The notes beneath the pieces are model-generated. The model was given only the letters and a program-made list of their open reading frames with translations. It did not search any database and had not been told where the DNA came from. A stretch of DNA of 64,000 nt from Cyanophyceae cyanobacterium (GTDB lineage: Bacteria; Cyanobacteriota; Cyanobacteriia; Cyanobacteriales; JBHJGN01). The DNA is taken from the NCBI GenBank assembly GCA_050331735.1, contig JBHJGN010000004.1, forward strand, positions 32,001 to 96,000, given 5' to 3'. The position numbers and the translations under genes are program-made. Below are positions 32,517 to 54,571 of the stretch, piece after piece (position 1 is the stretch's first letter; the number at the start of each line of letters is the position of its first letter).

Positions 32517-32711
32517 ATGGCTAAAGCGAATCCGATTGAGATGCAAAAGTATTTAAAGGGAATGGACTACCCTGCCAGTCAGCAAGATTTGGTGGACCAC
32601 GCCAAGAAAAATGGGGCTGACGACGATACAGTTTCCGTTCTTGAACAGTTGCCTGACAAGCACTATGAAACAGCCGCTGATGTTAGTAAAGCAGTCGGTC
32701 AGGTCGAATAA
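32517..32711 (+). CDS. DUF2795 family small protein
   Basis: QKYLKGMDYPASQQDLVDHAKKNGA...LEQLPDKHY. Confidence 0.85.
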   Translation: MAKANPIEMQKYLKGMDYPASQQDLVDHAKKNGADDDTVSVLEQLPDKHYETAADVSKAVGQVE

Positions 32712-32900
32712 AAAAGTGGCAAAATACGATAGTGCAGGGGCCAGAAGACAACTCGGGGGAAGGGAGACAGGGACATTTCTTTTCAGGATTGGTTCTGCTT
32801 ACTTTGCCTCATCTCACTTCTTTTGTGCTGAAAGCAAATCGTGAATTAATTTACCAGGCGGGATGTTTAGCTCTAAGAACAAGAGACTAACCATAAAAAC

Positions 32901-33666
32901 ATGGGAAAACAGCACTCTAGGGCCAAAAAAATCCGTCAATTGGTTTGCTCTCAGTTTGGCTATGAATCTCTCCGCCCGGGGCAAGAGGAAGCCCTGAATG
33001 CTCTACTGGATAGACGTGATACGTTAGTGGTCATGCCAACGGGGTCAGGTAAATCAGCCATTTATCAAATGGCGGCGCTGTTATACCATTTACCGAAAGT
33101 AGTCAGATAGTTCCCAAACTAACCAACAACTGGAGGTTCAAGGGCAAAGAGCTGCTGTGCTTCCCTTTCCCCTTTACCCTTTCCCCCAACTCATCAAGTC
33201 TCCTATTACTTTTTCTAATTGGTATTAATTCCTGGTGTGACGGTCGTGATTTCGCCGCTGATTGCCCTCCAGCAAGATCAGGTTGAGTCTATCAATGAGG
33301 AGTTGACGAGCGAGGCGGCAATTGTGAATTCAACAATTACCAAAAGCGATCGCCTGTCTATTCTATTGCCCCGACGACCTCAACATCCGTCGCTTTTTAG
33401 CCAGTAGCGGACAGATTGACGTTGAGCAAGTGGAAGCGGTAGCGGGAACCGTTGAAGAACACAATCAACCACCGGGTCGCGTGGTAGAAGATACAGACAA
33501 GTCCTTCTGGGGACAAACAAAGATTCTCCGGTACGAAGGCAACAAAGTTGTCGTGCTATTTAACGAGGTTGGTTACAAAACCCTCAGCGTTAAGCTAGCG
33601 GTACAAAGAAAGTTACTCAAGCGCCTCAGCGATCGCACAAGACAAGAAAAGCCTATTCAAGCTTAG
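32901..33666 (+). pseudogene. recQ: RecQ family helicase pseudogene
   Basis: Fragments FGYESLRPGQEE..VMPTGSGKSAIYQ (motif I) and TVVISPLIALQQDQV (motif Ia), then AIACLFYCPDDL and a C-terminal RYEGNKVVVLFNEVGYKTL; interrupted by an insertion and lacking motifs II-VI. Confidence 0.85.
33084..33224. mobile_element. 141-bp MITE-like insertion in recQ
   Basis: TTA duplicated at 33081-83 and 33225-27; imperfect TIRs (TACCATTTACCGAAAGTAGT vs reverse complement TACCAATTAGAAAAAGTAAT); excision restores QMAALLIPGVTVVISP in frame. Confidence 0.8.
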
Positions 33667-33715: not shown

Positions 33716-34750
33716 TCAACTAGAATCATCCTGAGTATATTGCTTGAGCCAAGTCAGGGCCGGTCTTTCTGTACCGTCTTTCCGTAATAAATAGGCATCT
33801 TTTTGCCAAATTTCTCCTTCTCGATAGCCCCACAGCGTAATGCCCTTAACGTGGGGATTCTCCCAAAAAAGCGGAAAGATGGCCTGATAGCTTTCTAATT
33901 GAGCTTGTTCTGAAGGGCCACGAATATCTAACTCTGTGATGTAAACGTCTAAGCCTATGTCGGTAATTCTGTCTAAATTCGTGCTGACTCTCTCGCGGTC
34001 GTTTTTTGTCAAAAAATGGCCCTGCACTCCCACCCCGTCAACTAATCCTCTCTCTTTCAACAGTTCGATCAGGGCAATATATTTTGTGGTTCGCTGGTTG
34101 CTCTTTAACACATTAATCTCGTTGATCAGTAGCTGGGCGTGAGGAGCCTGTTTTCTGGCAATCCGAAACGCTTCGATCACCCAATCAAATCCAGTTTCTC
34201 CCGACCCTCCTAAAGCCTCTGCGTAAAAGGGCGGTTCTACTAAAGCTTCATTGACAACCTCGATAATCGCTGTATCGGGATAGCGCGTCATAAAAGCTTG
34301 AATCCACTCTTCAAATTCTGCCTTCTGTTCCGACGGCGGCAAATCTTTCAGCCACTTAGGGGGATTGTGCCACCAGATTGGCGTATGCCACTTGAAAATG
34401 ACATTATTGCTCAACGAGAACTCATAGAAGATATCGAGCTTCGTCCAGTCCATGCGATCACGTTCTGGCTCGACCAATTGCCACTTGCCGTTGTTCTCGG
34501 GTGTTAACTGATTCCAATACTGAGTAAATTCCTCTGGAACCGTATCTCGAATCCCAACGACATTACCCAGAAATTTTTCGTTCGTCCGGGAAACAGAGCG
34601 TTCCGACCGCGGCTCGGCCCGATAGCTATTGCTCAAGCTCATGCTGCCAATTGCTAGCATACTGATGACGACAATCTTTTTGAGGCTGGGCACAATTAGT
34701 CTCTTGAACAACGACTTGGAGCGGCCAATAGCACAGAGTATCCGCGCCAA
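33716..34750 (-). CDS. Glycoside hydrolase family 10 (endo-1,4-beta-xylanase-like), probably secreted
   Basis: WNQLTPENNGKW, FKWHT, VVNEA (acid/base), GVQGH, ITELD (nucleophile), GITLWGY; true start probably downstream. Confidence 0.9.
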   Translation of the reverse strand: MARILCAIGRSKSLFKRLIVPSLKKIVVISMLAIGSMSLSNSYRAEPRSERSVSRTNEKFLGNVVGIRDTVPEEFTQYWNQLTPENNGKWQLVEPERDRMDWTKLDIFYEFSLSNNVIFKWHTPIWWHNPPKWLKDLPPSEQKAEFEEWIQAFMTRYPDTAIIEVVNEALVEPPFYAEALGGSGETGFDWVIEAFRIARKQAPHAQLLINEINVLKSNQRTTKYIALIELLKERGLVDGVGVQGHFLTKNDRERVSTNLDRITDIGLDVYITELDIRGPSEQAQLESYQAIFPLFWENPHVKGITLWGYREGEIWQKDAYLLRKDGTERPALTWLKQYTQDDSS

Positions 34751-34908
34751 CTAGCTGTCATTATGGTAGCTGCTTCCCCCAAATCGGAGGCAACAAGATC
34801 GGGCGGTGGATAAACGCGGAAATAGTCCTTCTCCGCTCTTGATGGTTGATAGACCCCAATCAACTATCAACAATGGACCGACCTCCGTTATCTCTGCCCG
34901 GAACGAGT

Positions 34909-35640
34909 TCAACGAATATCTTCGTAAAACTGCTTGAGATAGGTAGCAGAGACCCCCACGCCCCAGAGAAACCCAATGGAGAGGTAAATAGCATGAGCCT
35001 TCAGCGCTCCCCATTTTGCCACCCGACGGTCGGATGTTTGGACAATCCGATTAACTTGGCAAATCCGTCCAGATTTAAACAGCCTGCGACATAAATCCGC
35101 ATCTTCCATAATCGGTAAAGTGCCATCGAAACCGCCACACTGCCAGAAGTCGGCACGACGACAGAATATCACCTGATCGCCGAACAGAATACGTAACCCT
35201 CTAAAAAACAGATGCGGACGAAACAGCAAAGGAGCATAATAGGTTTTTAAAAAATGATGCAGCACCACCCCCCAGCGAGTGGTTTGCGGTCCTGCCATCA
35301 CTGAAACAAAACCGCCACAGGCTACAGTGCGATCGCTTAAAGTGTTCGCGATCACTTTTACCAAATCGTCAGGAACAATCGTATCCGCATGCAGAAAACA
35401 CAGTGTCTCACCCGAGGCTACCTTTGCTCCGTCATTCATTTGAACAGCACGTCCTCGTTGCTCAGAGAAGACCACGGTCACTCCAGCCGCTTTAGCAATT
35501 TCAACGGTGTCATCTCGACTACCGCCATCGACTACGATTACTTCCCACGGAGCCGGAGACAAAACCTGGAGATGACACAAAGTTTGGCCAAGAGAGGCAG
35601 ATTCATTTAAAGTCGGAATAATAATCGAAACGCGAGACAT
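34909..35640 (-). CDS. GT2 glycosyltransferase (TIGR04283-like)
   Basis: IIIPTLNE, VVDGGSRD, GRAVQMN, FLHADT, FGDQ, MEDADL. Confidence 0.85.
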   Translation of the reverse strand: MSRVSIIIPTLNESASLGQTLCHLQVLSPAPWEVIVVDGGSRDDTVEIAKAAGVTVVFSEQRGRAVQMNDGAKVASGETLCFLHADTIVPDDLVKVIANTLSDRTVACGGFVSVMAGPQTTRWGVVLHHFLKTYYAPLLFRPHLFFRGLRILFGDQVIFCRRADFWQCGGFDGTLPIMEDADLCRRLFKSGRICQVNRIVQTSDRRVAKWGALKAHAIYLSIGFLWGVGVSATYLKQFYEDIR

Positions 35641-35851: not shown

Positions 35852-36826
35852 TCAAAGCGGCAGGTCGTCGAGGAGATTTTGGGTTGAGTTAAGTAAAGAA
35901 CGCTGCGCCGATTGTTGCTGCTGAACGCTGGCAAAAGATTTAATCAATGGTTCTAAACAGCGCTGAGCGTCTTCGTAACCCCGCTGTCTCAGTAAGTTGA
36001 TGCGTACGGTGCTAAAGTCGAAAAAAGCCTTAGCTAAACCGACTGCTGGAGTAGCCGACTCCTGAATTGGGAGTTCTGGTCTAATTTCAATGACGATTTG
36101 GCCCGGAAAGTTGTGACGATTCCAGGTAGCTCCGTTGCCCAAATGAATCACGATCGCATGAGTACAGCCGCGAGCCGCAAGTGCGCCGAGAGGAACGTTA
36201 TCAGCCAGACCGCCATCTGCATAGCATTGACCGTTAATTTCCCGGCTCGGAAAGGCGAGGGGAATGGCTGCACTCGCGAGCAGTACCTCAAACATCTGAT
36301 CGTCGGCAAAATCTCGAACGCAGAGCCAGTGAGCTTTCGTTCCGGTACGGGCGCGAACAATCTCGACTAGCCAATCGGATGCTCCCAGGTTCAGAGACGG
36401 GAAAACCGCTACCCAAAATTCAGTTCCCCTTCTCAACCTGTTGGGTTTTATCGCTGCTCTCAGCACCTGTTCAATTGGTTTCGGGTCAAAAATGGCTGAC
36501 TGCAAGTGCTCTTGTCTAGAGGTGAGCTGCTGACCCCCCTTGAAGTAAGTAGCAGGCTGATTCCGACGAATAATGCCAATGCTGCCAAGTCGATCCCAAA
36601 CTTCATTGACTCTCTGAACTCCATTTTCAAAGGAACCATTAGCGGCTAGAACCCCGCCATTAAGAGCGCCAATGCTCGTGCCAGCAATAATTTGTGGCTG
36701 GATGCCGAGTTCTGCTAAGTAGGTCAGTGCTCCAACCTGATAAGCCCCTTTTGCCCCGCCACCAGCAAGGACTAAACCAAAATGAGGAGTTGCTTTCTGA
36801 TTCACCTGATTACTGAGTAGATTCAA
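35852..36826 (-). CDS. Patatin-like phospholipase
   Basis: LAGGGAKG oxyanion loop, GTSIG (catalytic Ser), ASAAIP, ADGG (catalytic Asp); start uncertain. Confidence 0.9.
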   Translation of the reverse strand: MNLLSNQVNQKATPHFGLVLAGGGAKGAYQVGALTYLAELGIQPQIIAGTSIGALNGGVLAANGSFENGVQRVNEVWDRLGSIGIIRRNQPATYFKGGQQLTSRQEHLQSAIFDPKPIEQVLRAAIKPNRLRRGTEFWVAVFPSLNLGASDWLVEIVRARTGTKAHWLCVRDFADDQMFEVLLASAAIPLAFPSREINGQCYADGGLADNVPLGALAARGCTHAIVIHLGNGATWNRHNFPGQIVIEIRPELPIQESATPAVGLAKAFFDFSTVRINLLRQRGYEDAQRCLEPLIKSFASVQQQQSAQRSLLNSTQNLLDDLPL

Positions 36827-37010
36827 TAGCGTTAAACACCTGTTTAATAATTTTGGGGTGTAAGATTTTGCCAGCGTGAAAAGGAATGATTACTCTGACT
36901 TAATTCTTGAGGTAGATACGATGACTACCCTTGCTTCTAATGAGTTCAAAGCCATCATTTACCAGCAATTTCTCTGCTTCGGAAGCTGTCAGTCTGGATA
37001 GTTTAGGCAA
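36810..37010 (-). pseudogene. hicA: HicA toxin with an in-frame nonsense codon
   Basis: TTG start; reads MPKLSRLTASEAEKLLVNDGFELIRSKGSHRIYLKN*VRVIIPFHAGKILHPKIIKQVFNAIESTQ; TAA at 36900-36902; absent from the ORF track. Confidence 0.85.
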
Positions 37011-37227
37011 CCTGCACCTCTAATGTCGTAATCATCACTTCTTTGGTTAAAAGAGCCAATTTTTCTTCTTTTGATAAAGTTTCCAGGTAGAGTTCGACGG
37101 CTTCTGTAATGTTGACTTTGACCTCTTCTAAAGAATCTCCTTGACTTTGACAGCCTGCTAATTCAGGACAGTAAGCATAATACCCCTGTTCATCTTTCTC
37201 AATGACGATGTGAAGTTTGTCAGACAT
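37003..37227 (-). CDS. hicB: HicB family antitoxin (short form)
   Basis: IVIEKDEQGYYAYCPELAGCQSQGDSLEE..NITEAVELYLE. Confidence 0.9.
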   Translation of the reverse strand: MSDKLHIVIEKDEQGYYAYCPELAGCQSQGDSLEEVKVNITEAVELYLETLSKEEKLALLTKEVMITTLEVQVA

Positions 37228-37240
37228 CTTCAGTTTGCTC

Positions 37241-38275
37241 CTAGTGCCACCGCAGCAGGTTTAAGCAATCGTTGGCGGTTTCCTCAACAATAGCAGTCAC
37301 AAATTCGCGGGCATCGGTGGTGCGGCAGATTGAATCGACCTGAGTCCGACACAGAGCGATCGCACTCTGACCCGGTTTTGAGGGTCTGGAGGATTCGGGA
37401 AGCGTTGCCAGCTCTAGCGTGGTCCCAATTGTAAACAGCATCGGAGCGTTGAGGAGTCGCTGTGGGGGCAGGGAGCGAATTTCGAGGAGGGCAGCCGTCA
37501 GAGCGCGATCGCTCTTTGACATGGCTGACCAAGCATGGTCTAGTAAATCGGCTAGGCTAAAAAAGCTCTGGGGAAGCTGTTGGCTCATCGAGAGCAGCTT
37601 GTTAATCAGCAGCGATCGAAACCGGTGAGTATCGCCGGTTTCCAGCTCATAAACAGCCACCGCACTGCTAAACACCTCTCTCGCCAGCAGCACCACCTGA
37701 ACGGCCCACGGCAGGTTAGTATAGCTTTGTCCGGCAGTCCATGCCGTCACAATCTGAGCCAAATCTTCGTTGGCCGCCACGCGCACTTCCAACTGTCTCA
37801 CTCGCGCTTCTAGCTGATTGAGGCGATCGCCCACCTGCTGCGCGAGACAATTGAGCTGTTGAGCGAGCAAACTAACGGCCTCCTGGTGGTCTTGAGAGAG
37901 CTGCCGATACCGCCGGATGGCGTTGCGCGCTTCGAGCAAGGATTGTTGCGTCACTTCTAGCGCCACTTGGCTAATGCGCAGTGAATCGCTCAGTTCTAAA
38001 ACCCATTGTCTGAGGGCTTCTTGACCAGCAATTAAATTCCCGTTGAGCAGCAGTTGGCGAGAGCGATCGCTTCCGTCTAGGCTGGACATCAATTGACCAA
38101 AATAGCCCAAACTTTTCCGATAGCGAATCACGTCGTTGCTGACCTGAATGCCGTTGACAATATTGACCAGTGCCCGATCGCCAACAATCGGAATCCGCTG
38201 CTGTAATTCTGCTAAATATCCCGTCGAATGGCTAACAACGTTGATCGGACTGCTGTGACTGAATTCTAAATTCAT
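37241..38275 (-). CDS. YjcZ/RdcB-like protein
   Basis: Coiled coil plus LAQIVTAWTAGQSY, recalling E. coli YjcZ; directly downstream of a CrfC-like dynamin as in E. coli. Confidence 0.6.
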   Translation of the reverse strand: MNLEFSHSSPINVVSHSTGYLAELQQRIPIVGDRALVNIVNGIQVSNDVIRYRKSLGYFGQLMSSLDGSDRSRQLLLNGNLIAGQEALRQWVLELSDSLRISQVALEVTQQSLLEARNAIRRYRQLSQDHQEAVSLLAQQLNCLAQQVGDRLNQLEARVRQLEVRVAANEDLAQIVTAWTAGQSYTNLPWAVQVVLLAREVFSSAVAVYELETGDTHRFRSLLINKLLSMSQQLPQSFFSLADLLDHAWSAMSKSDRALTAALLEIRSLPPQRLLNAPMLFTIGTTLELATLPESSRPSKPGQSAIALCRTQVDSICRTTDAREFVTAIVEETANDCLNLLRWH

Positions 38276-38278
38276 GGC

Positions 38279-40624
38279 TTAGCGAGCATTTAGTAGAGCG
38301 TTAGTACGCTCAAGATAGATTTCTGATTTTTTGAGCTTTGCTGCTGTCTCCGAAACGAGAGATTTGAAGGTTCCCGCTAATTGACTCTCGGCGGCCAGGG
38401 ATTGCTGTTTGGCCTGCTGAGCTTGCCTGAGGCTGTCCTGGTAACAGTACAGGTAGTGATTGAGTTCGCCAAAGTAAGCCTCAACGTGCTGCTGCCATTC
38501 TTCCTGGACGTACTGAGCAATCTGTTGATTAAGCTGAGCGATGCTGTCGGTGATCGCCTGATTAATCTGCTTAGCTAATTCTTCTAAAGAAACAGTATAG
38601 TAAGTCTTTATTTTGGTAATGGGAATCTTCTGCTCTACCTTAAGCAAAAACAAAAAATAGAAAGGTCTTTTGACTTTAATTTCGACATTTTTGATCGGTT
38701 TGTCGATCTGCTCGACAACGGTTTGCCGACAGTTAAGCTGACGACTAGCAAGGGCAGGCCGCGAGAAAGTTAGCTCTCGCTTAAAATTTTGGGGGAGACA
38801 AGACTGAGCTTCTTCGAGCGCGGCTAATTCTTGAGTAAGCACTAATTGTAGCTGAGCTTGTGCTCTCTCAATTTGTTGTTCTATAGCGTTACCAACGTTT
38901 TCTAGCAGCTTGTTGGCGGCTTGTTGAATCCAAGTCACCGCTTGCTCAGCAAAGTTTCGCGCTTCTTGCTCAGTGGTAAACTCGAAGATGCCAAAGGATT
39001 TGTATTGAAAGCTCAAGTCTGAGTGTTTGAGCCAGGTGGAGAAAGTTTCGGTCTCATCTAGGGAGCTAACACTCTGTCCAGGGCTGAGCTGCTGTAGAAG
39101 CTGATGCCAGTCGTTGCTATCCTCGATCAAAAAATCCTCAACGCGAACCTGGAGCTTCTGATGAAGCAACTTAATGATATTATCTAGGCTCTGCTTCAGA
39201 TGGTGACTGACGGGCTCGACTGCTTGCAGGCGATCGCGGCATTGCTCAACGCCAAGTAGTTCCGCTGCTAACGCCTCCACCTCTAATCGCCATGTCTCTT
39301 CCTCTTGTTTCCACGCATTCTGGCGCAGATTGAGGTCGTTTTTGAGTTCCAGCAACAGATTGCGACCCAACTGGAGCGCCGACACCATACAGCGGGGAGC
39401 GGCACTTTCTAGCAGGGCTTGAATGGCTCCTCCTAAGAAGGGTTGCATTCCAGAGTCTTCCCACAAATACAGGGCCTCCTCCTGGAGTTCGGCTACCCTC
39501 GAGCGGGCCAGTTTGCTCGCCCATCGCGGACCTAATGCTTCTTGCGCTAAGGCTGATGCAGACTCTAGATCGGCTAAATTCGCGTCTGGATACTGCTGTC
39601 GCTCCCGGAGAAATTTGGCCGCCGAGAACGCCCGAATCGCTGAGACTTCAAATATCCGCTTGCTGTAGCGATGGTCAAATGACAAATCGGCACAGACGAA
39701 TTCCCGAACTTCTTGAGGAGACAAATCGCCTTGTCGTCGCTGGTCTATTTTGTTCACGAGAATGTAAAGATTTTCTGGCCCCAGTAATTCAATCACTGGC
39801 TGGACGTGTTGTTTCACTTCCGCAGCAGCCTGAGTGTTGAGCTGAGTAAAGTCTAGAACCAACAAGACGAGGGAGCTGCGACGCAGTTGTTCTTCCACCA
39901 CCGACATTAATTTCAGACTGTCCTCCGCTTCGTTCGGTCCTGGGGTATCCACAATCACCAAATTGCCAAGTTCCGGGGGCTGAGTTGGCGAGTGCCAAAA
40001 CGGAGTTTCGAGATGCGGTAACTCCATCAGGTGAGCCAGCGGATCTTGGGCAGGATTGACGATGCTGCAAAGGCGGATCACATCATTGAGAGTCGTGAGG
40101 GTATTCTCGATCTCCTCGCGTCCGCAGGCTTTTGCTAGCAGGGGGACTTCGGCGGGAATTGCCTCGAGTAGCTCCATCAAGTGAGGATACTGACCCACCT
40201 TTGTACGCATCTGTTCGATGCCTAATGCCTTAGTTTGCCACCGCAGTACCGTCAGAGCCGCCTGAAACACCGAGAGAATTTTGGGGCTGAGGGTGAGCAC
40301 TGGCTCTGCAATGGCCCCGTTGAACACAATTTCGGTGGGCAGCATCGTCATCGCGGTGTTGCGACTAGGCAGCAGCTCCTGTCCGACAATCGAGTTGACA
40401 ATAGTGGATTTTCCGGCCTTCATCGGGGCAACGACGGCCATTCTCAGCTCTAAATCTGCGACATTCCGCGCTGCTTGAGCAATTTCTTGTCGATAAAGGA
40501 CGTATGGGGGAGAGTGTTCGGTACTGAGCGCCGCAGCACGCTCCATAAGTTCGCCAATTTGCTTGAGTAGTTCAAGAACGTCTTGCTGTAGTTCCTGGAC
40601 GTTAGGCTTGAGAGTCATAATCAT
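38279..40624 (-). CDS. Dynamin-like GTPase, CrfC/RdcA (YjdA)-like
   Basis: VVAPMKAGKST (G1), LPSRNTAMTMLPT (G2), DTPGPNE (G3), VNKID (G4); long helical C-terminus. Confidence 0.85.
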   Translation of the reverse strand: MIMTLKPNVQELQQDVLELLKQIGELMERAAALSTEHSPPYVLYRQEIAQAARNVADLELRMAVVAPMKAGKSTIVNSIVGQELLPSRNTAMTMLPTEIVFNGAIAEPVLTLSPKILSVFQAALTVLRWQTKALGIEQMRTKVGQYPHLMELLEAIPAEVPLLAKACGREEIENTLTTLNDVIRLCSIVNPAQDPLAHLMELPHLETPFWHSPTQPPELGNLVIVDTPGPNEAEDSLKLMSVVEEQLRRSSLVLLVLDFTQLNTQAAAEVKQHVQPVIELLGPENLYILVNKIDQRRQGDLSPQEVREFVCADLSFDHRYSKRIFEVSAIRAFSAAKFLRERQQYPDANLADLESASALAQEALGPRWASKLARSRVAELQEEALYLWEDSGMQPFLGGAIQALLESAAPRCMVSALQLGRNLLLELKNDLNLRQNAWKQEEETWRLEVEALAAELLGVEQCRDRLQAVEPVSHHLKQSLDNIIKLLHQKLQVRVEDFLIEDSNDWHQLLQQLSPGQSVSSLDETETFSTWLKHSDLSFQYKSFGIFEFTTEQEARNFAEQAVTWIQQAANKLLENVGNAIEQQIERAQAQLQLVLTQELAALEEAQSCLPQNFKRELTFSRPALASRQLNCRQTVVEQIDKPIKNVEIKVKRPFYFLFLLKVEQKIPITKIKTYYTVSLEELAKQINQAITDSIAQLNQQIAQYVQEEWQQHVEAYFGELNHYLYCYQDSLRQAQQAKQQSLAAESQLAGTFKSLVSETAAKLKKSEIYLERTNALLNAR

Positions 40625-41076: not shown

Positions 41077-42909
41077 ATGAAGATGACTCAAAGCCGCGAG
41101 CCGTTATCGGCAGACGTTCAATACTCTACCTTGGTAGAGCTGCTGCGTGGAAGGGCGCGGCACCAGAGCGAGCGTCATGCCTATACCTTTTTAATCGACG
41201 GTAAAAAAGCGAGCGCTCCGCTGACCTACGGAGAACTCGACCGTCAAGCCCGAGCGATCGCTGCTCACCTCCAGCAGCATCAAGCTCAAGGAGAACGGGC
41301 GCTGCTGCTGTATCCGCAAGGCTTAGAAATGGTGGCGGCGTTTTGTGGCTGTCTCTATACTGGAGCGATCGCCATTCCCGTTCCGCCCCCGGAGTCCGGC
41401 AGACTGAAGCGGACGCTCCCGCGGCTGCGCTCGATCGTCAAAGATGCCCAAGCCACCTTTGCGCTGACGACAGGGCGAATTCTCTCTCTCGTCGAGAATG
41501 TCCGCGACGAATTTCCCGAATTTGACCAGATGCGCTGGCTAGATACCGAGCAGCTCGACCTCACGCTAGCCGAGCAGTGGCAGGAGCCGCCCTTAGACAA
41601 AGACACGCTCGCTTACCTGCAATACACCTCTGGCTCCACCTCGACGCCGAAAGGAGTGATGCTCAGCCACTTCAATTTGATGCATCACGCGGCCTATCTC
41701 CAAAAAGCCTGTGGCTACGAACCAGAGAGCGTCACGACCTGCTGGATGCCCTACTTCCACGATTATGGACTGGTAGAAGGAATAATGGTGCCGCTCTACA
41801 ACGGGACTCCGTGCTATTTGATGTCTCCTTTCTCCTTTATCAAGCGTCCGGTACAGTGGCTCCGCAATATTACCCACTTTGGAGTCACCCACTCTCAAGC
41901 CCCCAACTTTGCCTACGACCAGTGCGTACGACGAGTTAAGCCCAAGCAGCTAGCCGAACTCAACCTGAGCGGCTGGCAAGCGGCGGGTAACGCGGCTGAG
42001 CCGATTAATCCGAAGGTGATGGAGCAATTTGTCGAAACCTTTGCTCCCTGCGGCTTTTCGTGGTCAGCCTTTGCTCCAGCCTATGGACTGGCTGAATTTA
42101 CTCTGCTGGTGTCCTCTAAGCCGAAAGGACAAACGCCAGTCCTGCTCAACGTTGATGCCGCCGCCATCGAACGCGACAAAATTGTTTCGGTGTCTGCCGA
42201 GGAGGGGCGCACGATTGCTGGCTGCGGTCATCTGGTGGGCAATACGCAAGTGGCAATTGTTCATCCTGACTCCCACCGACGCTGTGCTGAAGATGAAGTG
42301 GGAGAAATTTGGGTGTCAGACCCGAGCGTTACCCAGGGTTACTGGCAGCGCCCCGAAGAAACGGCCCGGACTTTCCAGGCCATGATTAAAGATACTGGGG
42401 AAGGACCGTTTCTGCGTACTGGCGACCTCGGATTTCTTAAAGATGGAGAACTGTTTATTACCGGACGCATCAAAGACCTGATTATTATTCGGGGAACGAA
42501 CCATTACCCCCAAGATATTGAGTGGACGGTTCAGAATCTCCATTCTGCCCTGCGTCCGGATTACGGAGCCGCCTTTTCTATTCAGGACCGCGGCGCAGAA
42601 CAGCTAGTTGTGGTCCAGGAAGTAGAGCGCCGCGCCGAAAACATTGAGGCCGATCAGCTCATTGCCGATATTCGCCAAGAAATTGCCGAACAGCACGAAC
42701 TCCAGGTATACGCCGTGGTGTTAGCTAAACCGGGCAATATCCTCAAAACGGCGAGCGGCAAAATTCAGCGTCGGGCCTGTCGTCACAATTTTCTCACCGG
42801 ACAGCTCACGGCGATCGCCGACTGGTGCGAAAATCCGCAGCTAAGCGCTAAATTTCGGACTCTACAAGGAGAAGTCGAGTCTTTGGCGCAACAAGTTATC
42901 GGCACATAG
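41077..42909 (+). CDS. Fatty acyl-AMP ligase (FAAL)
   Basis: YLQYTSGSTSTPKG, FHDYGL, YGLAE, FLRTGDLGF, NHYPQDIE, KTASGKIQR. Confidence 0.9.
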   Translation: MKMTQSREPLSADVQYSTLVELLRGRARHQSERHAYTFLIDGKKASAPLTYGELDRQARAIAAHLQQHQAQGERALLLYPQGLEMVAAFCGCLYTGAIAIPVPPPESGRLKRTLPRLRSIVKDAQATFALTTGRILSLVENVRDEFPEFDQMRWLDTEQLDLTLAEQWQEPPLDKDTLAYLQYTSGSTSTPKGVMLSHFNLMHHAAYLQKACGYEPESVTTCWMPYFHDYGLVEGIMVPLYNGTPCYLMSPFSFIKRPVQWLRNITHFGVTHSQAPNFAYDQCVRRVKPKQLAELNLSGWQAAGNAAEPINPKVMEQFVETFAPCGFSWSAFAPAYGLAEFTLLVSSKPKGQTPVLLNVDAAAIERDKIVSVSAEEGRTIAGCGHLVGNTQVAIVHPDSHRRCAEDEVGEIWVSDPSVTQGYWQRPEETARTFQAMIKDTGEGPFLRTGDLGFLKDGELFITGRIKDLIIIRGTNHYPQDIEWTVQNLHSALRPDYGAAFSIQDRGAEQLVVVQEVERRAENIEADQLIADIRQEIAEQHELQVYAVVLAKPGNILKTASGKIQRRACRHNFLTGQLTAIADWCENPQLSAKFRTLQGEVESLAQQVIGT

Positions 42910-43042
42910 GTGTCCGACGACGAGACTGCCGCTGACTCCTAGGAAAACTGCTAAGATAGTGGCTAATTTAAGGGAATTTTCTCCTTCCAAAATCTGCTTG
43001 CTCTAGGGGTCACTCATCCAGACGTTTGTTGAAGAAATCATT

Positions 43043-44836
43043 ATGCATAAACTGAAGCAATACTGGGTAGCCGAAACGCTCGAAAAAGATTTAGGCAGCC
43101 CCAACAATCCAGACAGCGTCATGTCTTTTAAAAGAGTCGTCGAACTCGACGAGCGCGAGGAGTTTCCCGAACAAGAAATCAACTGGCTCTACAACTGGAA
43201 ACTGCACCACTACTACATCCCGACCAACTGTGGTGGTGAGTTTACCTCGTTTGAGGAATTTGTGGCGTTTGTGCGCGTCCTCTGTCGCCGGGATCAAAAC
43301 ATTGGCATTGCCTTTACCACCATGTTTTGGTCGTTCTTAACCTGGATGGGAGGAACCGACGAACAGAAGCAGCAGCTTGCTCAGTATCTGAAGGACCACA
43401 ACGGGACTCTCTGCTTGGGGTATTCCGAAAGAGAACACGGCAGCGATTTAGTCGGAGGAAGCGTCACGGCCACTCCTGTTGCTGGCGGCTATCTGCTCAA
43501 CGGAGAAAAATGGCCCATCAACCGCGCTACCCTTTCTGGTGTTTCTTACGTCCTGGCTCGTACCGGCAATCTAGGAGAAGCAAAGAGCCTATCGCTTTTT
43601 GCTGTGGATAAAAGCAAGATTAATGCTTCCCAATACTATAATCTTCCCAAAATTAAGACTCACGGAATTCGCGGGGCCGATATGAGCGGCATCGGCTTCA
43701 AAAATTGTTTCGTCCCCGAATCGATGCGCCTGCAAAAAGAAGGAGACGGGTTAGAGCTAGCCCTCAAAGGATTCCAAATTACTCGCACTCTTTGCGCGGC
43801 GTTCTCCCTAGGGGCTGCCGATACCGCGCTCAGGACCACGCTCAACTTTGCCCGACACCGCATCGTCTACAACAAGACAGTATTTGAGCTACCGCAGCCT
43901 CGTCAAACTCTGGTAAACGCCTTTCTCGATATTCTCATTGGAGATTGTGAAACGATCGGGGCAGCGCGGGGATTTCATGTGGTTCCTGAACAGTTTAGCG
44001 TCTGGGCATCGGTTGTCAAATACCTGGTAACTACCCGATTAGAAACGGCCATCAACGACGTATACCCGGTGTTAGGCTCGCGTTTCTACATGCGGGAAGA
44101 ACATAACTGGGGAATTTTCCAAAAGGTCTTGCGCGATAACTCCATCATCAGTATGTTTGACGGCAGTACCGTGGTCAATCTACACGCTCTGATTCTACAG
44201 TTCCGCCAAATCACTAAGTACCGCTCCCGCCGCAAAGCCAACACCCTCGCTGAAATTGGTTCTCGCTTGGAGACCATCTTCTCGCTGGAGCAGTCAGTGC
44301 CCTCCTTTGCGCCTGAGAAGCTAGCGCTTTTCGGTCGCGGTGCTGACGATCCGCTTCAGGGACTAGAAATTGCCCTAGAACAGCTACAGGCTCTTGAATC
44401 CAAGGTTGATAGCGGAGTGTTAGAGAAGCTCCTGTCTCTGGGTAATCTAGTGCTGGAAGAATTGAACGCTCACGATGACCGAATTGCCAACTCCAAGTTT
44501 GAGTTTGGTCACGCTCAGTCTCCAGAATTGTTTGAAATTGCGAAGCAGTACTGTACGCTGCATGCAGCGGCCTGCTGTCTGCATATGTGGCTTTACAACC
44601 GCCACATCTTGGGAGACTTTTTTGCTCAAGGAGAATGGCTCGTCCTCAGTCTACACAGGCTGCTGCGCACCGTAAGACCTCTACCCTATGTGATCGCTCA
44701 AGCCTACGTAGAGAATGTCGCTCAAGAGCTACTCAAGCTGCACCGCGAGGAACGAGCGTTTTCGATTGTTCCTTTTCAACTGGCCTCGTCGTCAGCTCAG
44801 GAATCCCCCGTTTCAGAGCTACAGCTCCAAGCCTAA
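43043..44836 (+). CDS. Acyl-CoA/acyl-ACP dehydrogenase
   Basis: GYSEREHGSD, LNGEKWPIN, THGIRGAD, MFDGSTVVN. Confidence 0.85.
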   Translation: MHKLKQYWVAETLEKDLGSPNNPDSVMSFKRVVELDEREEFPEQEINWLYNWKLHHYYIPTNCGGEFTSFEEFVAFVRVLCRRDQNIGIAFTTMFWSFLTWMGGTDEQKQQLAQYLKDHNGTLCLGYSEREHGSDLVGGSVTATPVAGGYLLNGEKWPINRATLSGVSYVLARTGNLGEAKSLSLFAVDKSKINASQYYNLPKIKTHGIRGADMSGIGFKNCFVPESMRLQKEGDGLELALKGFQITRTLCAAFSLGAADTALRTTLNFARHRIVYNKTVFELPQPRQTLVNAFLDILIGDCETIGAARGFHVVPEQFSVWASVVKYLVTTRLETAINDVYPVLGSRFYMREEHNWGIFQKVLRDNSIISMFDGSTVVNLHALILQFRQITKYRSRRKANTLAEIGSRLETIFSLEQSVPSFAPEKLALFGRGADDPLQGLEIALEQLQALESKVDSGVLEKLLSLGNLVLEELNAHDDRIANSKFEFGHAQSPELFEIAKQYCTLHAAACCLHMWLYNRHILGDFFAQGEWLVLSLHRLLRTVRPLPYVIAQAYVENVAQELLKLHREERAFSIVPFQLASSSAQESPVSELQLQA

Positions 44837-44864
44837 TTTGTTCACCCTACCAGACCAGCTTATA

Positions 44865-45209
44865 ATGACTCCTGTAGAAACTATTCAGAATTGGCTCGTC
44901 AATCAGCTTGCCGAGCAGCTTTCTTTGGACGCTAATGCGATTAGCACCACAGAGCCGCTGACTCGCTATGGACTCGACTCCATTGACGCTGTCACTATCG
45001 TCGGCGACTTAGAAGACTGGCTAGATATGGAGCTTCCCTCAACTTTATTTTGGGATCATCCAACGATTGCTCAATCCTCTCAGTTTCTAGCCGATAATTA
45101 CGATGTTGCCGGAGCACTAAACAGTGAGCCCCAAAGCGACGCAGCAGACCCCGAACCAGTGACCAGCGGCAAGGGTTGGGGTGGATTATTTGGTCGCTTC
45201 GGCTCTTAA
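44865..45209 (+). CDS. Acyl carrier protein with C-terminal extension
   Basis: YGLDSIDAV phosphopantetheine site, LFWDHPTI; ATG at 44865. Confidence 0.9.
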   Translation: MTPVETIQNWLVNQLAEQLSLDANAISTTEPLTRYGLDSIDAVTIVGDLEDWLDMELPSTLFWDHPTIAQSSQFLADNYDVAGALNSEPQSDAADPEPVTSGKGWGGLFGRFGS

Positions 45210-45275
45210 AAAACAGCCAGTCGTTGGGGGAGAATCGCTCCCCAACCAAACAGTACTCCCTCCTCAGTTCAGACC

Positions 45276-46736
45276 TTGAATTACTCGGACTTTTCTTTTT
45301 GGTGGATACTGCTCCTCTTTTGCGTTCCGTTCTTTACGGTACGCACCGTTGCTAGATCGGTTAATCTGTGGCCGGGGTTTTTCGATGCCTTGGGGCTGAT
45401 GGCTCTGTCGCTGCTCCTCTTCTTCAACGCCAGCCGTGCTAGCTTCGTTGTTTTTATTTTCGAGGTGGTTTTTAACTACGTAATGGTGGCGCTGATGCAG
45501 CGCACTCGCGGTTGGCAAGCCAAGCTGTTTGCGGGGGTCATCATTACGATTGACATTGCTATTCTGGCGTACTTTAAGTATCTAGCCTTCTTTGTTGAAG
45601 ATGTTTTTGGGATACTAGCGGGGGGGGTTGCCGACAACTGGGATCGCAGTTTGCCGATTCCGGTCTATAGCCATATTCCTCCAGGGGTGTCTTTCTACAC
45701 CTTTCAGATGGTGGCCTTTGTCGTTGATTCTCTCACAGCCCGCAAGAAACGCCCGATCGGCTTTGTTGACTATATCAACTTTGTCGCCTTCTTCCCCCAA
45801 ATTGTGGCCGGACCCATTGAGCGGCGCACGAACTTGTTTCCCCAAATTGAATCGTTTCGCTTCAAAGCCACTTTGGAAAATTTCGATGTTGGCCTGCGGT
45901 GGCTGTCTTTGGGGTTATTTATGAAGTTTGTGCTGGCCGACAATCTGTTTCCCTACATTGATTTAACCACTGTCGAAAATGCTTGGGGAGTCTGGTTCAA
46001 CGCGTTTATCTTTACTCTCAGAATTTATTTCGACTTTGCTGGCTATAGCTTTATTGCCCTGGGAATCGCTCGCTTTCTGGGTGTACGCCTGACAGTCAAC
46101 TTTTTAGCACCCTATACCAGCCCGAGCATTAACGAATTTTGGCGGCGATGGCACATTACCCTGAGCACCTGGTTTAGGGATTACGTGTTTCTCCCGCTGA
46201 TGGGATCTCGGAAAAAACTAGCGCCTTTCTTCCTCTTTATTACGTTCACGCTGTCGGGTTTTTGGCACGGAGCTGCCTGGAACTTTATCATCTGGGGAGC
46301 CTATCATGGCGCTCTGCTGCTCGTGCTGCGCTATCTAGGCAGACCCTTCCATAAAGTGGTGGGTCAACACATTGCCCGACCTCAGTTTATCTCTTGGGGA
46401 TTGACCTTTGGCTCTGTCGTACTCGGCTGCCTGTTCTTTATGGATACCGATATCGGTCGTTTACTCCTCAAGCTGAGAACGTTAGTGACTCCCTGGGCTT
46501 ATTCTCTGTCTAATTTAGGAGAATTTTTCGGCTCCTACAGCGTCAACGAAGGAGCGGCTCTGCTACTGATTTTGGCCCTCTCCGGTCTCGTGCTGCTGAT
46601 GGAACATATTGCCGTTTGGCAGCGGAAGTTTGAATACGAACTCTTGCTTTCCCCTTGGGTATCGCCCGTGCTGCTAGGGCTAACACTACTATTAGCGGCC
46701 AATACTCCTTCTGAATTTATCTACTTCGAGTTCTGA
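45276..46736 (+). CDS. MBOAT O-acyltransferase (AlgI/DltB-like)
   Basis: GVSFYTFQ, FFPQIVAGPIER, YFDFAGYS, EFWRRWHITLS, GFWHGA; ends FIYFEF. Confidence 0.92.
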   Translation: MNYSDFSFWWILLLFCVPFFTVRTVARSVNLWPGFFDALGLMALSLLLFFNASRASFVVFIFEVVFNYVMVALMQRTRGWQAKLFAGVIITIDIAILAYFKYLAFFVEDVFGILAGGVADNWDRSLPIPVYSHIPPGVSFYTFQMVAFVVDSLTARKKRPIGFVDYINFVAFFPQIVAGPIERRTNLFPQIESFRFKATLENFDVGLRWLSLGLFMKFVLADNLFPYIDLTTVENAWGVWFNAFIFTLRIYFDFAGYSFIALGIARFLGVRLTVNFLAPYTSPSINEFWRRWHITLSTWFRDYVFLPLMGSRKKLAPFFLFITFTLSGFWHGAAWNFIIWGAYHGALLLVLRYLGRPFHKVVGQHIARPQFISWGLTFGSVVLGCLFFMDTDIGRLLLKLRTLVTPWAYSLSNLGEFFGSYSVNEGAALLLILALSGLVLLMEHIAVWQRKFEYELLLSPWVSPVLLGLTLLLAANTPSEFIYFEF

Positions 46737-47668
46737 TGAAATTTAAGTTAGTTCCTTGGTTTGTAGCGGCAGGGGTAGCCTGGTCGTTGGGCTACGCCTA
46801 TAACGTCTACTACGGCGGCGAACTGAGCTGGCTGCGGGCGATGTACGAGCAGAAACTGGCGATCGCCGCCGCCACCGAAGCTCCCCAACGACTGCTGATT
46901 ACTGGCGGTTCGGGAGCCCACTATACCCTCGACTCCGAACTGATTGAGCAGCAGTTGGGCATTCCCGTAATTAATTTGGGCATCGACGGTCCTGTGGGGC
47001 TGAACGTGATTCTGCCCAGCGTTCTCGACCAGGTGCGTCCGGGTGACGTGGTGCTGCTGATTCCGGAGTATTTAATTTTGCTGGATGAGGACGGTTTAGG
47101 CGATCGCTCTGGTCCCTTTAGCTTGGCCATTCATCGACCCGGCTTAGGGGGCGTTCCTCCGAAGCAGTTAGCCCAGGACATTATGCTGCTGGGAGTGCCG
47201 ACGCTGCGCTCTGTCGCAAAATCTGCCATGGATTTGGTTCGGGATGGTGAATTATCCGGGTACTATTCCGATCCCCTCACCGAACGAGGCGATCCGACGA
47301 CCGTCAATACTCGTACGGGAGAGTGGTGGCAATTGCAGATTAGTCAATCCATTTCCCCACACGCCGCGAACAGAATCGCTCAATTTCAGGAAGAAGTCGC
47401 GGCACGGGGCGGAACCCTGGTGCTGTCTTTGCCCTGGGTTTACGCTCAGGCCGACCAAGAAACCCTCACCAACGTACAGAAGACCGCCGAACAGCTAGAG
47501 GGAATTGCGCCCACCATCTACGATCCCTCCTCACTCAACATCAAGACAGACTCTAGCCTGTTTGCCGATACTCACTATCACCTCCTCCCAGAAGCTCGCC
47601 GAATTCGTGCTCGGGAATTAGCAGCTCAGCTACAGCCCGTCCTAAAAACAATTAACAATGACCAGTGA
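46736..47668 (+). CDS. Membrane-anchored SGNH-like protein (DltD/AlgJ-like MBOAT partner)
   Basis: N-terminal anchor, ITGGS, INLG, C-terminal DTHYHL; TGA/ATG overlap with the MBOAT gene. Confidence 0.6.
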   Translation: MKFKLVPWFVAAGVAWSLGYAYNVYYGGELSWLRAMYEQKLAIAAATEAPQRLLITGGSGAHYTLDSELIEQQLGIPVINLGIDGPVGLNVILPSVLDQVRPGDVVLLIPEYLILLDEDGLGDRSGPFSLAIHRPGLGGVPPKQLAQDIMLLGVPTLRSVAKSAMDLVRDGELSGYYSDPLTERGDPTTVNTRTGEWWQLQISQSISPHAANRIAQFQEEVAARGGTLVLSLPWVYAQADQETLTNVQKTAEQLEGIAPTIYDPSSLNIKTDSSLFADTHYHLLPEARRIRARELAAQLQPVLKTINNDQ

Positions 47669-48815
47669 ACGATGTCATATCTGTGTTCTTGGTGGCGGCT
47701 TCGGTGGTCTCTACACGGCTCTCTATTTCAGCCACTTTTCTCGGGTAAAATCGGGAAAATGCCAAGTTACCCTGGTTGAAAAAAACGATCGCTTTCTGTT
47801 TACGCCTCTCCTGTATGAGCTGCTCACGCAAGAACTACAGCGCTGGGAAATTGCTCCTTCCTACTACAAGCTGCTGGCCCGGACCAAAATTAAGCTCTGT
47901 CAACAGACGATTGAGGACGTAGATCTCAAAGCTCGTCGGGTTCGACTAGCAGAGGGGCACCTAACTTACGACTATCTGGTTCTGGCCGTCGGCAACCAAA
48001 CTCAGTATGCTCAGATTCCCGGTGTCGTTGAACATACCCTGCCATTTCGGACTCTCGCGGATGCCGAACTTTTAGATCAGCGGCTTCAGCTTTTAGAAGC
48101 TACCCAACGACAGCGCCTGCGCGTTGCCATCGTTGGCGGTGGCCCCAGCGGAGTGGAACTGGCCTGCAAGCTCGCTGACCGTCTTCACAAACGGGGTCAA
48201 ATCTCTCTGCTCGACCGGGGGGAGCAGTTGCTCAAGCCCTATAACCAAGCCATTCGAGCAGCGGCAGAGCGATCGCTTCATCAGCGCCGGGTGCAGGTGA
48301 GTCTCAATACCACCGTCAAAACCATTACAGCAGAGCACATTACTCTTGTTCAAGATGAACAAATCCAAACCGTTCCGGTAGACCTGGTGCTGTGGACGGC
48401 AGGAACGAAGATTAGAGACTGGGTGCAGAAACTCGAGTGTCAGCACAACGAGCGCGGCCAGGTTCTAACGAGGCCAACTCTACAGCTAGTAGATTACCCG
48501 GAAGTGCTAGCGCTGGGAGATCTGGCCGAGTGCCAGAGCAAACAAGCACCGACGACGGCTCAAGTCGCGTATCAGCAGGCCAGCCGCGCTGCTAAAAACC
48601 TCAAAGCAATTGTGAAAGGGCAACGTTTGCGTACTTTTCACTATCTTCACTTAGGAGATATGTTAACTCTAGGCAAGGGGGCGGCCATTGTTTCTAGTTT
48701 TTCGATTAATATTACTGGCTCTTTCGGTGCTCTGCTCAGACGATTAATTTACGTTCAGCGCCTCCCGACGTGGCGACATCGATTACAGGTGTTGAAACGT
48801 TTGTTGGTCGGTTAA
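47658..48815 (+). CDS. NAD(P)/FAD-dependent oxidoreductase, type II NADH dehydrogenase (NdbB-like)
   Basis: GGGFGGL, FTPLLYE, GGGPSGVELA, GD...TAQVAYQQ. Confidence 0.85.
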   Translation: MTSERCHICVLGGGFGGLYTALYFSHFSRVKSGKCQVTLVEKNDRFLFTPLLYELLTQELQRWEIAPSYYKLLARTKIKLCQQTIEDVDLKARRVRLAEGHLTYDYLVLAVGNQTQYAQIPGVVEHTLPFRTLADAELLDQRLQLLEATQRQRLRVAIVGGGPSGVELACKLADRLHKRGQISLLDRGEQLLKPYNQAIRAAAERSLHQRRVQVSLNTTVKTITAEHITLVQDEQIQTVPVDLVLWTAGTKIRDWVQKLECQHNERGQVLTRPTLQLVDYPEVLALGDLAECQSKQAPTTAQVAYQQASRAAKNLKAIVKGQRLRTFHYLHLGDMLTLGKGAAIVSSFSINITGSFGALLRRLIYVQRLPTWRHRLQVLKRLLVG

Positions 48816-48913
48816 CCGGACGCTGCGTTTCGACGGCAGGCTGGGTAAACTAGTTGGCAAGGCAGAATTGCCCAGGCTTCAGTAAAGAGCATAAAATTAA
48901 GGACCACAGAGCA

Positions 48914-50731: not shown

Positions 50732-50802
50732 AAGCCTGCGCGTCACCGTCATTTTCTGACCTTCATCAAGCCACAATAACGCTCGGCTGAACCGATATCA
50801 AA

Positions 50803-52494: not shown

Positions 52495-52509
52495 GCTGAA
52501 ATTGAGCTT

Positions 52510-52552
52510 GCTCAAAGCAGCCGCCGGAAGAGGTTACGGCGGAACTTTGAGC
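52510..52552. other. Intergenic stem-loop
   Basis: gctcaaag..ccgccg / cggcgg..ctttgagc. Confidence 0.45.
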
Positions 52553-52704
52553 GACAAGACAAATTAAAAAAGTAACAAGTTGCAGGTGATTGCTTACTCC
52601 ACGGTCAACAATTATTCTCTACAGAATATATCAGGAAAACCACTTAAGACTAAATTGGCGCATACTTTACCTCAATTAGTTAAAGCTAGGAAATGGAAAC
52701 TTAG

Positions 52705-54186: not shown

Positions 54187-54358
54187 GCTCTTTGAAGTAG
54201 CCAGAGGATTTTTCCGGTCGTATCAAAAGGTTACTACCTGACGAGCAATTTTCCCTAGAATATATTTAGTAACTCACGTAAACAGCCTACAAACAGACTA
54301 AAAACTAATATTGGTTATCTTGTTCGCTCCCCAAACAGCAATCGCAATGTAGAAGACG

Positions 54359-54560
54359 GCTATTTGACCACTTTCGATGGCAGCAAAACCTTGACTGTAA
54401 TTGCCCTAGCTACGAAGGCATCACGCAGTTGGCTAACATCCATTAAAGTCTGCCAAGGTTGAAGCTAACCTAGGGTGGACCTGGGCAGATGAAGCGAGCG
54501 CTTGCGGTCAGTAATTCTCTCTCAACCGCGCGTCTAATCTGTCCTTTTAGTTTTCAATCC
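54359..54560 (+). pseudogene. Degenerate relic of an MBOAT gene 3' end
   Basis: Translates YLTTFDGSKTLTVIALAT versus YLPTLYDSKALGMLALAT in the preceding MBOAT; ctctctcaaccgcg.gtct is shared. Confidence 0.7.
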
Positions 54561-54571
54561 TCTTAAGCAGC

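Follow-up and report, generated by a model that had tools for sequence, protein, structure and literature searches.

The closest described relatives of the operon considered here come from Escherichia coli. In strain MP1, operons of a dynamin, an RdcB-family protein and a phospholipase lie on two islands that carry EcoKI or Druantia, are strongly up-regulated in Kapi1 lysogens, and have been termed putative dynamin phage defence systems (PMC12922286). The same study suggests that RdcB and the phospholipase regulate the dynamin, the reverse of the direction favoured below (PMC12922286). DefensePredictor predicts that a dynamin of the family (log-odds 10.1) and the adjacent RdcB (5.4) are novel defence genes (PMC13092281 Table S4), and scored a 798-residue E. 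coli dynamin at 6.7 in an operon spanning 4366 bp (PMC13092281); since gene length and span agree, this operon is probably the E. coli island trio. In K-12, the genes for RdcA (CrfC/YjdA) and RdcB (YjcZ) likewise place a YjcZ-family partner behind a dynamin-like GTPase; the two proteins bind each other in two-hybrid assays and activate the diguanylate cyclase DgcE in dependence on GTP hydrolysis (PMC6510439). In Bacillus subtilis, phage protection by the dynamin DynA depends on a membrane site made of Lys and Phe residues (PMC12998192). Here we describe an operon for a dynamin-like GTPase, a YjcZ/RdcB-family protein and a patatin-like lipid acyl hydrolase in a cyanobacterial genome (G000), within the 64,000-nt stretch from position 32001 to 96000 of contig C4, hereafter the window. 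The kind of trio has already been proposed in print, and the window operon is a distant cyanobacterial member of it; added here are proteins in which YjcZ and patatin are fused and a conserved hairpin tip in the dynamin. We put at about 0.5 the probability that the three proteins form a mobile module that limits phage by controlled hydrolysis of host membrane lipids.

The three genes travel together. Searches with YjcZ gave 44 loci of the cyanobacterial type after removal of duplicates (numbered L), and a patatin gene follows yjcZ in 41 of them. Of the other three, L008 breaks off at a contig end 24 bp past yjcZ, L024 is a short contig bearing hicB and part of yjcZ, and L025, from the unpublished genome G420, is a remnant of 62 codons, whose only other contribution to the figures is as one of the remnants counted below. 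A dynamin gene lies upstream of yjcZ in 37 of the 44, and four of the remaining seven (L002, L010, L019, L048) start inside yjcZ at a contig edge. Separation of the patatin from the dynamin-YjcZ pair, which an earlier note on this DNA had named as speaking against its proposal of a three-component system, was thus not seen. From the patatin side, one of the fused proteins (P0197) had matches at E<=1e-30 in 47 of the 389 family f7 genomes, and yjcZ is present at 29 of 40 places sampled from 39 of these 47 genomes. Seven of the remaining places are cut by contig ends, although one (L101) has 3.2 kb without yjcZ, and four hold only a truncated patatin, three of them with dynamin scraps; this set overlaps the 44 loci and is not independent of them. 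Across 25 loci, the identities between pairs of loci go together for the three proteins, with correlations of 0.85-0.94. Shared host ancestry would also produce this, but one genome (G092) has two copies (L032, L045) that diverge widely in all three genes.

A more direct connection between two of the proteins comes from gene fusion. A phmmer search of representatives clustered at 50% identity gave 262 matches, and among the 152 proteins checked, 11 YjcZ homologues carry a C-terminal patatin domain (one is truncated), with Pfam in agreement for all 10 that were scanned. Two are labelled Nostoc sp. and Streptomyces sp. in the database, where the name Streptomyces, like Streptacidiphilus, is a database label. 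In a 100%-complete genome an intact fusion stands behind an 845-codon dynamin frame (L096), a natural two-gene version of the module. In a FastTree phylogeny of 134 rows the fusions need five changes, of which strongly supported branches force just one, and a single fusion clade is rejected by the approximately unbiased (AU) test (p=2.5e-6; 35 rows, comprising 10 fusions with P0150 left out, 24 hand-picked unfused proteins and the window protein). Because a single origin is rejected, fusion or fission occurred more than once, and a one-off fusion artefact can be discarded on the strength of the intact L096 and the AU test. Judged from the sequences, nothing here suggests more strongly than this repeated fusion that YjcZ and the patatin may act together; the fusion also gives the RdcB family a concrete candidate role as a GTPase-lipase adaptor. 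The earlier note's link among three components is therefore supported by the patatin in 41 of 44 loci, by the trio across phyla (below) and by the fusions.

The trio extends well beyond cyanobacteria, in keeping with the cross-phylum synteny that the earlier note had looked for: it occurs in Enterobacter, E. coli and Aliarcobacter. The same order is found on an Enterobacter plasmid, where the patatin is split by an insertion, and on a plasmid of Aliarcobacter; there both upstream open reading frames (ORFs) are annotated "hypothetical" and the dynamin is putative. For the E. coli islands, all three genes are present in 10 of 12 entries sampled down the ranking, and a match to rdcB plus patatin (coverage >=80%) is present in 2483 of 5426 complete E. 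coli genomes. In one E. coli island (L137:4174-17619) the trio follows a GTPase-family gene and precedes DUF932, antirestriction, yeeS, yeeT and cbeA genes, in a slot that we take to be the flu/agn43 position of CP4-44 in K-12. Among cyanobacteria, YjcZ is present in 5 of 41 relatives and, across the phylum, in 18 of 401 genomes (with the source genome included each time), flanking genes differ among most loci in the ORF lists examined, and both plasmid matches (2/2) bear the whole trio, one at 24% identity. In the phylum to which G419 belongs, a profile scan across 401 genomes returned only G419's own fragment and four weak partial matches. No relative was found in viral contigs (two single-protein queries), in GenBank phages or in metagenome contigs (query fusion P0128), all scans that reach close relatives only. 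The three genes are a mobile unit inherited together across phyla.

In E. coli, the gene behind the core pair rdcA-rdcB is proP and not a patatin. Direct similarity between the window YjcZ and core RdcB is marginal (E 0.004); in the tree, core RdcB (L054:5575-6453), at the end of a long branch, clusters with island RdcB with support of 96, and under midpoint rooting patatin-bearing loci occur to either side of the root. This topology suggests that core RdcAB may derive from a patatin-bearing family by loss of the lipase. The same pair inspires an unlikely alternative, in which the trio would be an RdcAB-like switch whose GTPase pair senses the GTP level and whose patatin output is a lipid signal or a surface change (biofilm, aggregation, phase variation). 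RdcA-RdcB does switch on DgcE in a GTP-hydrolysis-dependent manner (PMC6510439), core RdcB clusters with island RdcB despite its long branch, and the E. coli trio follows a GTPase-family gene in an island of the yeeS/yeeT/cbeA type; however, core rdcAB lacks the patatin and is apparently the derived form, and no conserved cyclase or signalling neighbour appears in the cyanobacterial loci, as judged from ORF lists rather than a full domain scan.

Decay of the module is frequent and uneven. In 11 of the 44 loci a gene is frameshifted, truncated or deleted, and two more are remnants, although assembly errors may explain some of these. L044 has an intact patatin although its dynamin and yjcZ are both broken, and in L011, L018, L033, L051 and L136 an intact patatin accompanies a broken dynamin. 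As far as gene content can tell, intact patatins beside broken partners favour activation of the lipase by its partners over restraint, and we infer that the GTPase pair controls the lipase in that direction. In another locus (L132:5444-6868) a deletion has created an in-frame join between the 5' part of yjcZ and the end of the patatin gene, with loss of the catalytic serine region. Selfish addiction, with a patatin toxin restrained by YjcZ or the dynamin and stabilising islands and plasmids, would suit the plasmid and island carriage and the toxin-antitoxin-type genes that gather at the yjcZ-patatin junction in six of 41 loci and in the window; it is very unlikely, as the L044 patatin is intact despite broken yjcZ and dynamin genes, YjcZ and patatin exist as a single chain, and the module is frequently lost.

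The window dynamin matches PF00350 at 53 bits (cut-off 27) and the CrfC model NF007368 at E 5e-53, which bears out its designation as CrfC/RdcA-like, while its NF007368 score of 180.5, against an equivalog cut-off of 1146, places it outside the CrfC/RdcA equivalog. Its GTPase motifs are APMKAGKS (residues 66-73), RNTAMT (88-93), DTPG (226-229) and NKID (291-294). The G1 motif, in which Ala replaces the first Gly, had been called atypical; the letters are as read, but this form is common to most cyanobacterial members and is the norm within their clade, with APTSAGKS in one subclade and GTMKAGKS in enterobacterial members including E. coli. The variant was rejected as a mark of inactivation, since it is clade-wide and the G1 Lys and Ser and the G2 Thr are invariant across 114 sequences.

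The AlphaFold2 model of the dynamin (predicted local distance difference test, pLDDT, 78.6; predicted template modelling score 0.55) has a G domain, a bundle and a long stalk. Its top fold matches are SynDLP, mitofusins, BDLP and IniA, with LeoA ranking lower; the best is SynDLP (7zw6; Z 20.3, 610 residues aligned, root-mean-square deviation, rmsd, 14.2), and a mitofusin gives Z 19.8 across 394 residues and rmsd 4.6. In the stalk, strands 638-652 and 663-679 form a predicted hairpin, at a lower confidence (local pLDDT about 51-68). At least two aromatic residues occur at positions 647-662 in 110 of 114 aligned homologues, and the commonest residues of the tip are K-K-R-x-W-W-H-W-L-W-L-V-P. On the model, this basic and aromatic tip is a putative membrane anchor of the dynamin. 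The dynamins of L003, L005 and L014 have a shorter segment around NFF instead of the long aromatic hairpin, and given this subgroup the candidate anchor is variable in the family. The highest 19-residue hydropathy means of the three proteins are only 1.6, 1.5 and 1.3, which makes a clear transmembrane helix unlikely in any of them. Two operons encode two dynamins, in the order dynamin-yjcZ-dynamin-inserts-patatin (L037:6318-12098) and dynamin-short dynamin-yjcZ-patatin (L042:9202-13684).

These fold relatives are what a role in membrane repair or remodelling under envelope or thylakoid stress would lead one to expect. The dynamin would then tether and fuse damaged bilayers and the patatin edit lipids locally without killing, through lysolipid curvature or removal of damaged acyl chains, and any effect on phage would be indirect, as with DynA. 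Such a role is also consistent with the housekeeping neighbourhoods, with the lack of defence enrichment around the operon (below) and with the six loci listed above, where an intact patatin persists beside broken partners and seems not to be acutely toxic alone. It is nonetheless doubtful, because core stress genes are not usually so patchily distributed or so often decayed and because the trio is carried on plasmids and islands. A dynamin-coupled repair lipase would still be undescribed in the literature searched, should defence fail.

The YjcZ call, for which the earlier note had sought confirmation by a hidden Markov model, holds at 32.1 bits against PF13990 (gathering cut-off 27), with the dynamin gene directly upstream. 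The model of the protein (pLDDT 86.1) has a 112-residue helix (residues 69-180) and a C-terminal helical domain. Searched with the whole model, which barely probes the C-terminal domain, Foldseek gave no match at E<=0.001 and other searches only coiled-coil entries with Z <8; in the ESM Atlas, template modelling scores >0.5 were reached only by YjcZ-type clusters, with feature scores <0.9. In a complex prediction run without controls, YjcZ with patatin scored 0.00, a value used neither for nor against binding. Among the YjcZ homologues, P0137 has an extra N-terminal Clp_N domain, and P0101 has about 125 extra, unassigned N-terminal residues, which may resemble a ubiquitin-conjugating-like fold. 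The patatin matches PF01734 at 127 bits, and its catalytic motifs are intact as the earlier note had said (GGGAKG, GTSIG and DGG, the third being DG[G/A/F/W] among relatives); its C-terminal tail is conserved among relatives, and PlpD is the nearest sequence with a solved structure (E 1e-15).

Lipid-hydrolysis defence is the single best reading of these data, on the patchiness, the decay, the plasmid carriage and two papers. The population pattern resembles that of defence genes: 18 of 401 genomes of the phylum and 47 of 389 of family f7 have the module or its relatives, and 13 of 44 loci are broken or remnants. Several observations weigh on the other side. The copy in the window sits among housekeeping and metabolic genes, and no integrase, transposase or defence gene was found among the 46 other ORFs of the window (Pfam, E<=1e-12). 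When PADLOC models (E<=1e-20) were run on ORFs inside the module or within 3.5 kb of it at 36 cyanobacterial loci, with 20 control stretches taken from preset positions in nine of the genomes concerned, matches were no more frequent in the flanks (24 of 284 ORFs) than in the controls (8 of 126; Fisher p=0.55), and loci with a match were 16 of 36 against 8 of 20 (p=0.79), in a small sample. The dynamin matches none of the PADLOC families at E<=0.1. PADLOC includes models for Leo, and Eleos (LeoABC, or "Dynamins") is an anti-phage system. The DefensePredictor scores may partly mirror likeness of the G domain to Eleos (26-29% query coverage; PMC13092281). The up-regulation in lysogens comes from one study, whose authors note multi-mapping for some genes (PMC12922286), and the sole characterised relative, RdcA-RdcB, works in cyclic di-GMP signalling (PMC6510439). 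Finally, the literature search found no protection phenotype, though nearly one E. coli genome in two has the pair.

In the proposed mechanism, the dynamin would bind to and assemble on a stressed or punctured membrane through its basic and aromatic hairpin tip. YjcZ would bind the dynamin in the way that RdcB binds RdcA and, as a long coiled-coil adaptor, would carry the patatin; the GTPase cycle would recruit to the bilayer, or turn on, a patatin that is otherwise quiet. Lipid hydrolysis would then abort or blunt the infection. Cyanobacterial membranes are rich in galactolipids, which patatins are able to hydrolyse. The hairpin tip, the G2 threonine and the catalytic serine offer three clean mutation targets. 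More tentatively, the trio might represent a widespread, cross-phylum form of immunity in which the dynamin senses membrane damage by phage and directly arms the patatin via the RdcB-family adaptor with no second messenger, and the RdcA-RdcB biofilm switch might be a domesticated descendant that lost the lipase and was rewired to DgcE. Should the trio indeed act in defence, a GTPase-gated membrane effector would operate without a cyclic nucleotide, and the origin of the RdcAB-DgcE switch would be explained.

The operon in the window reads, on the minus strand, dynamin, yjcZ, hicB, hicA pseudogene and patatin, as set out in the table below. Its three main ORFs lie exactly where the earlier note had placed them, and each is single-copy in the source genome by tblastn. 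The tight packing described there applies to gaps and overlaps of a few bp (dynamin-yjcZ gap 3 bp, yjcZ-hicB gap 13 bp, hicB/hicA overlap 8 bp), but not to yjcZ and patatin, which are 415 bp apart with hicB and hicA, a pair that the note does not mention, in the interval. The patatin start is either GTG at 36805 (317 residues, likelier), which leaves a 4-bp gap after hicA, or TTG at 36826 (324 residues), which overlaps hicA by 17 bp. Promoter-like sites are at chance level (4 observed, 4.2 expected).

Table. Coordinates of the operon's features in the window
Feature	Position	Strand	Basis
Dynamin-like GTPase (RdcA/CrfC-related), 781 aa: G domain, bundle, long helical stalk	38279..40624	-	PF00350
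Predicted beta-hairpin in dynamin stalk, residues 638-679, tip KRPFYFLFLLK; putative membrane anchor	38588..38713	-	AlphaFold2 model
YjcZ/RdcB-family protein, 344 aa; putative adaptor	37241..38275	-	PF13990
hicB-like antitoxin gene, 74 aa; passenger insert	37003..37227	-	PF15919, 38.1 bits, over cut-off
hicA-like toxin pseudogene, in-frame TAA at 36900-36902	36810..37010	-	PF07927, translation
Patatin-like lipid acyl hydrolase; putative effector	35852..36826 (or start at 36805)	-	PF01734

The hicBA insert is a passenger outside the proposed mechanism. Both halves of hicA match PF07927, the first over cut-off, and the G+C content of hicBA is 38.8%, compared with 50-54% for dynamin, yjcZ and patatin and 49.5% for the genome. 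Contigs of run X1 are identical to the stretch with zero differences, which makes an assembly slip an improbable cause of the hicA stop, although X1 may be the source sample itself and is thus not independent. Genes are inserted between yjcZ and patatin in seven of 41 loci, and include hicB, XisH/XisI, nucleotidyltransferase-HEPN pairs, HigB, DUF29, DUF1232 and a transposase. L021 and L024 each have, at this junction, a truncated hicB with 77% DNA identity to that of the window. Since hicB occurs at the junction in just these two other loci, hicBA was rejected as a core component; the inserts in seven of 41 loci and the truncated copies mark it as a decaying passenger at an insertion-prone junction.

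The earlier note's description as an accessory region suits the operon itself, but not its surroundings, which are housekeeping genes with no step in G+C content in the window; integrase, transposase and defence genes are also absent from the four ORFs flanking the module. A defence island around this copy was accordingly rejected, and the defence-island association that the note had looked to is not found in the PADLOC comparison of cyanobacterial flanks given above. Many PADLOC matches, at loci and controls alike, are to generic domains. Specific defence neighbours do occur: RmrA (L003), Drt8 (L009), a type IIG enzyme with AbiEii (L033) and Shedu near L053. The strong DRT8-type reverse transcriptase lies at L009:3189-4823, and the RmrA-like gene with a partner ORF at L003:11205-12852, both beside copies of the module. 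Control stretches also had retron-type reverse transcriptases and an AriA-like gene; one control (L074:3138-5408) encodes a 757-residue retron-type reverse transcriptase fusion, and another (L078:5443-6267) a fragment of a similar gene.

Several other features of the window deserve mention. Just downstream of the operon on the same strand, 33716-35640 holds a TIGR04283 arsenosugar-type glycosyltransferase and a GH10 hydrolase. The stretch 32517-33666, after tRNA-Ala, holds a DUF2795 gene and short ORFs that we take to be pieces of a RecQ-type helicase, although none matched Pfam at E<=1e-12. Divergent from the operon, 41077-55744 encodes an AMP-binding enzyme, an acyl-CoA dehydrogenase, an acyl carrier protein and two MBOAT acyltransferases, and a second AMP-binding gene lies at 60787-62586; this acyl cluster was not seen by related operons in the ORF lists examined.

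Among known systems, membership in CBASS, DS-2 and Eleos was rejected, with no cyclase, a lipase below cut-off and a dynamin that has no PADLOC match. CapV-type effectors of CBASS share the patatin motifs, and the window patatin has weak matches to PADLOC CBASS phospholipases (E 2e-11); unlike CBASS, there is no nucleotide cyclase in the operon or its flanks, and the lipase scores 42.8 against model NF041079, whose cut-off is 200. DS-2 combines a phospholipase with cGAS and DAC (PMC13092281). Eleos also places a dynamin-like GTPase in a multigene accessory operon, whereas the partners here are YjcZ and a patatin. DynA, SynDLP and BDLP share the dynamin-like fold, at structural-alignment identities of just 12-20% for SynDLP and BDLP, and the Lys/aromatic cluster of the hairpin tip may by analogy correspond to the membrane site of DynA; in contrast, DynA has a second GTPase head, and the window dynamin is single-headed and partnered by YjcZ and a lipase. 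Core RdcA-RdcB is a two-gene unit ahead of proP without a lipase, whereas the window operon has one.

The E. coli island trio is the system of the same kind, although so far as a hypothesis only, for all that its rdcB-patatin pair is present in 2483 of 5426 complete E. coli genomes and that the kind is patchily spread in cyanobacteria. In a literature search made mostly of titles and listings, with few subscription papers, no functional test of the trio and no cyanobacterial members or fusions were found, and a name search of the cloned-unit table of DefensePredictor gave no dynamin, CrfC, RdcB or YjcZ entry (PMC13092281). The window operon differs from the E. coli trio in belonging to a distant cyanobacterial clade, in its APMKAGKS G1 motif, in its hicBA insert and in its chromosomal housekeeping context as opposed to an island; fusions go unmentioned in the accessible text on the MP1 operons (PMC12922286). 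Nevertheless, the two have the same three families in the same order: the window and enterobacterial island dynamins share 33% identity over 287 residues (E 1e-37), the patatins share 29%, and the island RdcB is found by the YjcZ profile at E 1e-54.

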